Below are positions 23,061 through 24,274 of a stretch of DNA of 64,000 nt, one piece after another (the stretch's first letter is position 1; the number at the start of each line of letters is the position of its first letter). The notes under the pieces are model-generated. The model was not told the DNA's origin. It did not search any database and worked only from the letters and a program-made list of their open reading frames with translations. Origin of the DNA: Escherichia coli (GTDB lineage Bacteria > Pseudomonadota > Gammaproteobacteria > Enterobacterales > Enterobacteriaceae); assembly GCF_017348835.2 (NCBI RefSeq), contig NZ_CP071375.1. The stretch is one strand, 5' to 3'. Made by a program: the position numbers and the translations under genes.

Positions 23061-23387
23061 ATGACTAAAAATACTCGTTTTTCCCCCGAAGTCCGTCAGC
23101 GGGCGATTCGTATGGTTCTGGAAAGTCAGGATGAATATGACTCACAGTGGGCGGCAATTTGTTCCATTGCCCCAAAGATTGGCTGTACGCCGGAGACTCT
23201 GCGTGTCTGGGTTCGCCAGCATGAGCGGGATACCGGGAGTGGTGATGGTGGACTCACCACCGCTGAACGTCAGCGTCTGAAAGAGCTGGAACGTGAAAAT
23301 CGTGAACTGCGCCGCAGTAACGATATCCTTCGCCAGGCTTCCGCTTATTTTGCGAAGGCGGAGTTCGACCGCCTCTGGAAAAAATAA
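23061..23387 (+). CDS. IS3-family transposase OrfA (HTH DNA-binding, leucine-zipper region)
   Basis: 108-aa [26 protein letters not shown]... typical of IS3-group OrfA. Confidence 0.85.
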
Positions 23388-24274
23388 TGCCACTGCTGGA
23401 TAAGCTGCGTGAGCAGTACGGGGTCGGACCGGTATGCAGCGAACTGCATATTGCCCCGTCAACGTATTACCATTGTCAGCAACAGCGACATCATCCGGAT
23501 AAACGCAGTGCCCGTGCGCAGCACGATGACTGGCTGAAGAAAGAGATACAGCGCGTATACGATGAAAATCACCAGGTATACGGTGTGCGTAAAGTCTGGC
23601 GTCAGTTGTTACGGGAAGGTATCAGAGTGGCCAGATGCACTGTGGCACGTCTCATGGCAGTTATGGGACTTGCCGGTGTTCTCCGGGGTAAAAAGGTCCG
23701 CACTACCGTCAGCCGGAAAGCCGTTGCCGCATGCGACCGCGTAAACCGTCAGTTCGTGGCAGAACGTCCAGACCAGTTGTGGGTGGCTGATTTTACCTGG
23801 GTAAGCACATGGCAGGGCTTCGTTTATGTGGCGTTCATCATTGATGTGTTCGCCGGATACATCGTGGGATGGCAGGTCTCATCATCCATGGAAACAACAT
23901 TCGTGCTGGATGCACTGGAGCAGGCGTTGTGGGCCCGTCGGCCGTCCGGCACAATCCATCACAGTGATAAAGGTTCTCAGTATGTATCGCTGGCCTACAC
24001 GCAGCGGCTTAAGGAAGCCGGATTACTGGCATCAACAGGGAGTACTGGCGACTCGTATGACAACGCGATGGCTGAGAGCATCAATGGTCTTTACAAAGCG
24101 GAGGTAATACACCGTAAGAGCTGGAAAAACCGGACAGAAGTGGAACTGGCCACACTAACGTGGGTGGACTGGTATAACAATCGACGATTGCTGGAAAGGC
24201 TGGGCCATATTCCTCCGGCAGAAGCAGAAAAAGCTTATTATGCTTCCATCGGAAATAATGATCTGGCAGCCTGA
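23387..24274 (+). CDS. IS3-family transposase OrfB (DDE catalytic domain; normally expressed as OrfAB fusion by -1 frameshift)
   Basis: 295-aa ORF overlapping OrfA stop in -1 frame; DDE-type integrase-core features (…HSDKGSQYVS…); A-rich run ggaaaaaataatg at the overlap. Confidence 0.85.
   Translation: MPLLDKLREQYGVGPVCSELHIAPSTYYHCQQQRHHPDKRSARAQHDDWLKKEIQRVYDENHQVYGVRKVWRQLLREGIRVARCTVARLMAVMGLAGVLRGKKVRTTVSRKAVAACDRVNRQFVAERPDQLWVADFTWVSTWQGFVYVAFIIDVFAGYIVGWQVSSSMETTFVLDALEQALWARRPSGTIHHSDKGSQYVSLAYTQRLKEAGLLASTGSTGDSYDNAMAESINGLYKAEVIHRKSWKNRTEVELATLTWVDWYNNRRLLERLGHIPPAEAEKAYYASIGNNDLAA

Follow-up and report, generated by a model that had tools for sequence, protein, structure and literature searches.

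The probable -1 frameshift site of an intact IS629/IS3411-type insertion sequence of Escherichia coli is a U_UUU motif served by an ALIL pseudoknot

The insertion sequence considered here raises the question of where, in the overlap of its two reading frames, the ribosome changes frame to make the transposase. The element is found in a stretch of 64,000 nucleotides of Escherichia coli DNA (contig NZ_CP071375.1; the whole stretch is called the window below), and the original prediction placed a programmed frameshift at positions 23370-23392, with the A-rich run at the boundary of orfA and orfB as the slip site. This segment reads cgcctctggaaaaaataatgcca (also given as cgcctctggAAAAAATAATGcca), and within it positions 23379-23389 are AAAAAATAATG. 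An intact insertion sequence of the IS629/IS3411 type (IS3 family) occupies the locus as one element of 1310 bp bounded by 25-nt inverted repeats. The same length, the same 25-nt repeats and an identical OrfB are found in IS629/IS3411/IS1203, without any difference of substance; both the element and the mechanism of ALIL-stimulated frameshifting have already been described, and the locus adds little that is new to biology. The features and their coordinates are collected in Table 1.

Table 1. Features of the insertion sequence and of its frame junction (positions in the window)
Feature	Positions	Strand	Evidence
Complete insertion sequence (IS629/IS3411/IS1203 type)	23007..24316	+	Inverted repeats, self-BLAST and database matches
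Left terminal inverted repeat, TGAACCGCC...	23007..23031	+	Pairs with 24292-24316; 25-nt arms, 88% complementary
orfA, 108 aa, HTH_Tnp_1 DNA-binding protein, frame 0	23061..23387	+	Exact sequence on 483 public contigs
Full-length match to the Rfam ALIL pseudoknot (RF01497)	23342..23458	+	120.3 bits (gathering score 50), E = 2.5e-32, model positions 1-117 of 117
U_UUU slippery tetramer, proposed -1 shift site, in phase UAU UUU	23348..23351	+	Conservation and spacing
ALIL stem-loop 1, SL1 (AGGCGG AGUUCGA CCGCCU)	23356..23374	+	Rfam structure; fold -9.1 kcal/mol
SL1 apical-loop bases GUUCGA, partner of the SL2 internal loop	23363..23368	+	Helix 98.5% paired in relatives
A6 run, last two Lys codons of orfA, in the SL1-SL2 linker	23379..23384	+	Sequence; slip site of the original prediction
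UAAUG, overlap of the orfA stop with the AUG of orfB; probable termination/re-initiation site	23385..23389	+	Overlap in 41 of 57 relatives; coupling inferred
orfB, 295 aa, HTH_21 and rve DDE catalytic core, -1 frame	23387..24274	+	Exact match to IS629 OrfB, O157:H7 Sakai
ALIL stem-loop 2, SL2, internal loop UCGGAC (23424-23429)	23419..23459	+	Rfam structure; fold -19.5 kcal/mol
Right terminal inverted repeat, ...GGCGGTTCA	24292..24316	+	Pairs with the left arm

The arrangement of the two genes agreed with the original prediction of an IS3-family element whose OrfA and OrfB overlap in the -1 frame. orfA lies in the frame in which the position modulo 3 is 0 and orfB in that in which it is 2, that is, in -1 relative to orfA; orfA ends with ...CTC TGG AAA AAA TAA, and its stop codon TAA (23385-23387) and the ATG of orfB (23387-23389) have the single base 23387 in common (TAATG). 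The claim that both frames are intact was borne out as well: exact public sequences exist for OrfA and for OrfB, the latter being identical to the public entry for E. coli O157:H7 str. Sakai that is named 'IS629 transposase OrfB', and the comparison of the ORFs with reference IS629 showed no stops or indels, for which reason this copy looks intact. The OrfAB fusion scored 367 bits against NCBIfam NF033516 (cut-off 160) over profile positions 1-369 of 369, and the Pfam domains HTH_Tnp_1, HTH_21 and rve were recognized on the fused protein; judged from its sequence, a full-length OrfAB is possible. Since the open stretch of the -1 frame extends from 23321 (after a stop at 23318-23320) to 24274, a shift that fuses the frames could take place anywhere in an overlap of 67 nt, and not at the A run alone. 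Of the predicted frameshift, an OrfAB fusion in the 0/-1 phase was supported and the assignment of the slip to the A-rich run was not.

The structure of the overlap is that of a complete ALIL pseudoknot. The core of SL1, GGCGG-AGUUCGA-CCGCC (23357-73, extendable to 23356-74), is followed by a linker of 45 nt and by SL2, and the GUUCGA bases of the SL1 loop are complementary to UCGGAC of the SL2 internal loop, with the formation of 6 pairs. Two hairpins 45 nt apart, connected by a 6-bp pairing of apical loop and internal loop with covariation, are likewise the properties of the ALIL family (RF01497; Mazauric et al. 2008). Where the kissing helix of most relatives has C-G and U-A, that of the window has U-A and G.U, a variant common to it and the other enterobacterial copies.

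The U_UUU tetramer is the sole slippery sequence at the right distance 5' of SL1, the spacing between the motif and the beginning of SL1 (23356/57) being 4-5 nt; the A6 run and UAAUG are positioned 3' of SL1, in the linker between the two stem-loops. According to Atkins et al. 2016 (PMC5009743), stem 1 of the IS3411 signal is located shortly 3' of the place of shifting, and because stem 1 sits 3' of the site that it serves, the A run, which is found 3' of stem 1 and about 31 nt downstream of U_UUU, cannot be the site served by ALIL. The ALIL structure is reported to raise the frameshifting of IS3411 in vivo, according to Mazauric et al. 2008 as cited in PMC5009743. By an empirical rule (Sharma et al. 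2014, PMC4066793), a stimulator takes effect from a position 4-10 nt downstream of the slippery sequence, and the spacing of 4-5 nt agrees with this rule and thereby supports U_UUU. A Shine-Dalgarno-like AGG/AAGG was noticed by eye about 10-11 nt 5' of U_UUU (23335-37), in a conserved coding motif, and is a candidate for an additional stimulator.

The tetramers U_UU.U and U_UU.C belong to the three most shift-prone ones, and IS3-family elements make use of both (PMC4066793). The values given for E. coli in Table S2 of the same paper are 0.14% (0.139%) for U_UU.U without a pseudoknot and 0.80% (0.804%) with a pseudoknot, and for A_AA.A 0.125% on its own and 0.256% next to a strong pseudoknot; U_UU.U is accordingly a motif of low efficiency, about 0.8% even with a pseudoknot.

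The functional -1 slip is very probably made by tRNA-Phe at U_UUU, with the ALIL pseudoknot as its stimulator. Most ribosomes translating orfA would stop at UAA (23385-87) and release the OrfA protein of 108 aa, and in a minority of them the tRNA-Phe on UUU 23349-51 would slip back by one base and pair again with UUU 23348-50. The orfB frame would then be read as UGC (23351-53) GAA GGC and onward, to give an OrfAB transposase of 404 aa with the junction ...SAYF/... (the slash marks the change of frame). The slip would be stimulated by the pairing of the SL1 loop with the internal loop of SL2, and the A6 run with UAAUG, in the linker, would provide the final Lys codons and the stop of orfA over the AUG of orfB, probably with some coupled re-initiation of free OrfB. 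The assignment of U_UUU as the slip site of this particular copy can be made with considerable confidence, the site of IS3411 itself having been deduced from the geometry of the Rfam model together with the review.

The comparison with relatives was based on a one-genome-per-species scan, which gave 80 loci with OrfB relatives of 52-98% identity, from Enterobacterales to Chloroflexi, and on an alignment (A1) of a 125-nt region in 57 distinct sequences, which come from many phyla and have the same range of OrfB identity (52-98%). Columns 12-14 of A1 (23348-50) were T in 57/57 and column 15 was T or C only; U_UU.U or U_UU.C was thus present in all 57 sequences, 4-5 nt 5' of SL1, an invariance that is partly by construction, as the locus filter of A1 demanded a U-rich motif. 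The canonical all-U heptamer was found in 18 of the 57 (U_UU.U_UU.C in 17 and U_UU.U_UU.U in one). On an unfiltered recount the slippery motif was present in 66 of the 69 loci holding the 3' end of orfA, and the three without it, two Mixta copies with several substitutions and one Serratia copy short of one T, look damaged. Of 62 in-phase loci, 61 had a -1 frame that stayed open between the motif and OrfB. The Serratia marcescens relative (L024:1440-1470, 68% identity) has TATTTGCC in place of TATTTTGCC, a deletion of one U from the slippery run that alters the phase relation of orfA and orfB; decay of the copy or an error of sequencing is the probable cause.

The Rfam structure, with the loop-loop helix included, was 90.8% paired on A1, compared with 33-44% when the 3' partners were slid by 1-3 columns, and 68 cells were changed on both sides, compared with 24 +/- 4 in shuffles. 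The SL1 helix was 95% paired across the relatives, and in SL2 the paired fraction was 96% for helix 3 and 80% for helix 4, with both partners changed in 8 pairs. The highest value, 98.5%, was obtained for the pseudoknot helix (columns 27-32 with 88-93, corresponding to 23363-68 with 23424-29), in which 2 pairs were changed on both sides: pair 28-92 is C-G in 43 and U-A in 14 sequences, and pair 27-93 is G-C in 43, G-U in 7, C-G in 3 and A-U in 2. The copy in the window possesses the U-A variant and one G.U pair in this helix. The ALIL gathering score was passed by 20 of 20 diverse relatives tested (70-113 bits), and the match in the window, with 120 bits, is the best-scoring among those compared.

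The A run was much less regular in its occurrence. It was found in just 12 of the 57 distinct relatives, all of them in the enterobacterial clade, and was absent in 45, where orfA ends without it, for example in CGACCGAAGUGAUG. Relatives that are devoid of the run are nevertheless multi-copy (3 copies per genome in Vreelandella, 6 in Halocynthiibacter and 2 in Nitrosomonas), which suggests that U_UU.Y and ALIL are enough for transposition. In the phase of orfA the run is read as G_AA.A_AA.A, which does not correspond to the X_XXZ_ZZN heptamer, and the tetramer A_AA.A alone qualifies. The window contains 78 A6 runs, compared with 65 +/- 10 expected from shuffles, and an A6 is therefore unremarkable in this DNA. 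SL2 begins 35 nt downstream of the run. On the sequences compared, the conserved feature at this position is the overlap of stop and start, an orfB-frame ATG overlapping the orfA stop (as UAAUG, UGAUG or AUGA) being present in 41 of the 57 distinct relatives. In IS3 an AUGA overlap of stop and start is associated with translational coupling, and by analogy the UAAUG of the present element is probably a site of termination and re-initiation that gives some free OrfB.

Several variants at the frame junction deserve a description. E. coli plasmid variants keeping one of the two sites and losing the other were sought, and those compared were not discriminating: IS1203 and an Edwardsiella copy retain both sites and one variant has A5G. 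The latter, an E. coli plasmid copy (L083:279-330, 92.5% identity), ends orfA with AAA AAG UGA and not with AAA AAA UAA, and this end offers the more slippery tetramer A_AA.G, yet it is still 3' of SL1. A copy on a Martelella alba contig (L020:1451-1510, 81% OrfB identity) carries a C-to-U change in the SL1 loop, which creates a -1-frame UGA between U_UUU and the A run and retains the loop-loop pair as G.U; its orfA, orfB and A run are intact, and either the copy is dead or it hints at a usable A run. Two alphaproteobacterial copies, from Labrys and Pseudorhodobacter (L028:1406-1561 and L060:1407-1562, respectively), have a palindromic insertion of 38-39 nt between the motif and SL1, with the cores GGCGCATGCAAGCATGCGCC and GGCGATGCAAGCATCGCC. 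The insertion of L028 is in frame and both frames are open, so that a new strong hairpin may replace SL1, and that of L060 disrupts the -1 frame.

The A run could alternatively be the main slip site, the tRNA-Lys moving from AAA 23382-84 to AAA 23381-83 with UAA in the A site and giving the junction ...LWKK/IMPLL...; the run is placed inside the overlap window, directly 5' of the stop, A_AA.A is a recognised though weak tetramer, the run is conserved within the enterobacterial clade, and many older database entries join the frames there. An irregular hairpin of -8.6 kcal/mol, beginning at 23388/89, that is, 4-5 nt 3' of the run, would also be suitably near, but its register differs in relatives such as the Enterobacter asburiae copy L005 (by inspection of A1). 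As a dedicated stimulator it was rejected on account of its weakness, its irregularity and the lack of a conserved register. ALIL cannot act on a run situated 3' of SL1 and 5' of a distant SL2, the in-phase sequence is no canonical heptamer, and A_AA.A remains at background without a stimulator and reaches about 0.26% with a strong pseudoknot. Moreover, the 45 relatives without the run possess the full signal, the 'WKKL' of the databases is an annotation device, in which the stop codon's U is read a second time, and the literal 'WKKI' product is not in the collection. A point on the other side is the Martelella alba copy L020, for which the A run would be the sole route to OrfAB, and which, against the U_UUU/ALIL assignment, retains both ORFs and the A run in spite of a -1-frame UGA 3' of U_UUU. 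A main slip on the A run is considered improbable, and U_UUU is preferred because SL1 of ALIL is 5' of the A run, the U-rich motif is invariant, the A run is limited to one clade and the tetramer efficiencies are higher at U_UUU.

It is tempting to speculate that both sites are used, U_UUU with ALIL as the main one and the A run as a minor one in the IS629 clade, with two OrfAB isoforms that differ by 12 residues. Both motifs fall within the 67-nt overlap, the A run (A5G in L083) is retained across the enterobacterial clade, and L020 has been left with the A-run route alone. However, the run encodes Lys-Lys in OrfA and Glu-Lys in OrfAB, and no additional function is required to explain why a shallow clade has kept it; a 95%-identical copy (L004) has an interrupted run (GGATAAAATGATG) with all else intact, and a conserved stimulator suitably placed for the run was not found among the relatives. 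Such a dual use is regarded as unlikely, and there is equally little probability that the enterobacterial IS629 clade gained, in the linker, another slip site next to the stop (A_AA.A and then UAA), yielding two OrfAB isoforms, or OrfAB even where the U_UUU route is closed, as in L020. Efficient transcriptional slippage needs about 8-9 or more A/T residues. The addition of an extra A on the A6 run by RNA polymerase, which would fuse the frames in the RNA, was rejected on account of the length of the run, too short at six, and of its non-conservation beside a conserved ribosomal signal; in its favour there is a homopolymer run at the frame junction, and slippage of this type is an established route to frameshifted products (Atkins et al. 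2016, PMC5009743), but it can be given hardly any credence here. The slip of tRNA-Phe at U_UUU remains the preferred explanation.

The public annotation of the junction is heterogeneous. For this exact element, the junction AYF/CEGG, which corresponds to the U_UUU_G site, was found on 71 contigs, and AYF/GEGG, also at the U_UUU_G site with the join one base later, on 43; LWKK/LMPLL, in which the frames are joined at the orfA stop by reading the U of the stop codon again, was found on 133 contigs. The literal product of a slip on the A run, ...LWKK/IMPLL..., was absent from the public protein collection. One and the same DNA has thus given three different records of an 'IS3 family transposase' of 404 aa (P0001, P0046 and P0047), which differ only in the join at the frameshift. 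Among the accessions shown, the newer WP numbers have junctions at the U_UUU site, and this is only a hint of a changed convention in the pipeline. As three conventions coexist, the NCBI fusion protein was rejected as an arbiter of the slip site, for either site. An A-rich stretch where orfA meets orfB is not automatically a slip site, and this corrects the former reading; the U_UUU junction is advised for the prediction of OrfAB, for fused-frame 'constitutive transposase' constructs and for proteomics searches.

The organization of the signal can be compared with those of further IS3-family elements. It has in common with IS3 a tetramer as the slip site, a pseudoknot as the stimulator (PMC4066793) and an orfB start over the orfA stop; the motif is U_UUU here and A_AAG in IS3, and the pseudoknot is ALIL here and of the H-type in IS3. 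IS911 and IS150 also produce OrfAB by -1 programmed ribosomal frameshifting, but they use the heptamer A_AAA_AAG, whereas the A run of the present element is out of heptamer register and misplaced relative to the stimulator; the A-rich heptamer of IS911/IS150 was probably the template behind the earlier reading of the A run. IS6110 (U_UUA_AAG) has in common the -1 frameshift of the IS3 family and a motif initiated by U, and its pseudoknot was validated by mutagenesis (PMC5896891); IS6110 combines a heptamer with a compact pseudoknot (PMC5896891), unlike the tetramer and ALIL described here.

The terminal inverted repeats of the element are imperfect and end with 5'-TG...CA-3', as in the IS3 family, and self-BLAST of the window revealed no second copy of the 1310-bp element. 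Its DNA is 95-100% identical to thousands of copies in E. coli, chromosomal as well as plasmid-borne, labelled as IS3 family or IS1203 family transposase; in all, E. coli copies number roughly 31,000. In E. coli PE164 the region of the element plus its flanks is 100% identical, and the RefSeq features there include an 'IS3 family transposase, programmed frameshift' and an 'AL1L pseudoknot', near pitB and a 5'-truncated thymidylate-kinase-like pseudogene.

The copy in the window differs from the reference elements IS629/IS3411/IS1203 in lacking a target-site duplication and in its position beside a truncated gene. No 3-bp target duplication was found around the IS, the left triplet being CTT and the right one (24317-24319) GTA, which concerns the insertion history of this copy and not the type of element, and suggests a later deletion or recombination. 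The left end adjoins a thymidylate-kinase-like pseudogene without its N-terminus (22757-23008, minus strand), and to the right of the IS there are hypothetical genes followed by a tyrosine integrase. Because of the missing duplication, the truncated neighbour and the integrase on the other side, the IS can be taken to mark the place where deletion or recombination has joined the pitB region to an island; the intact copy would in this way flag a rearranged junction in this E. coli genome, with pitB on one side and the integrase-bearing island on the other. Among the relatives, the IS copy of Pseudomonas sp. PDM18 has a tmRNA gene (L047:443-800) about 650 nt upstream, and a sok antitoxin RNA lies beside the copy in Enterobacter asburiae (L005:2530-2697); such neighbours are typical of island and plasmid settings.
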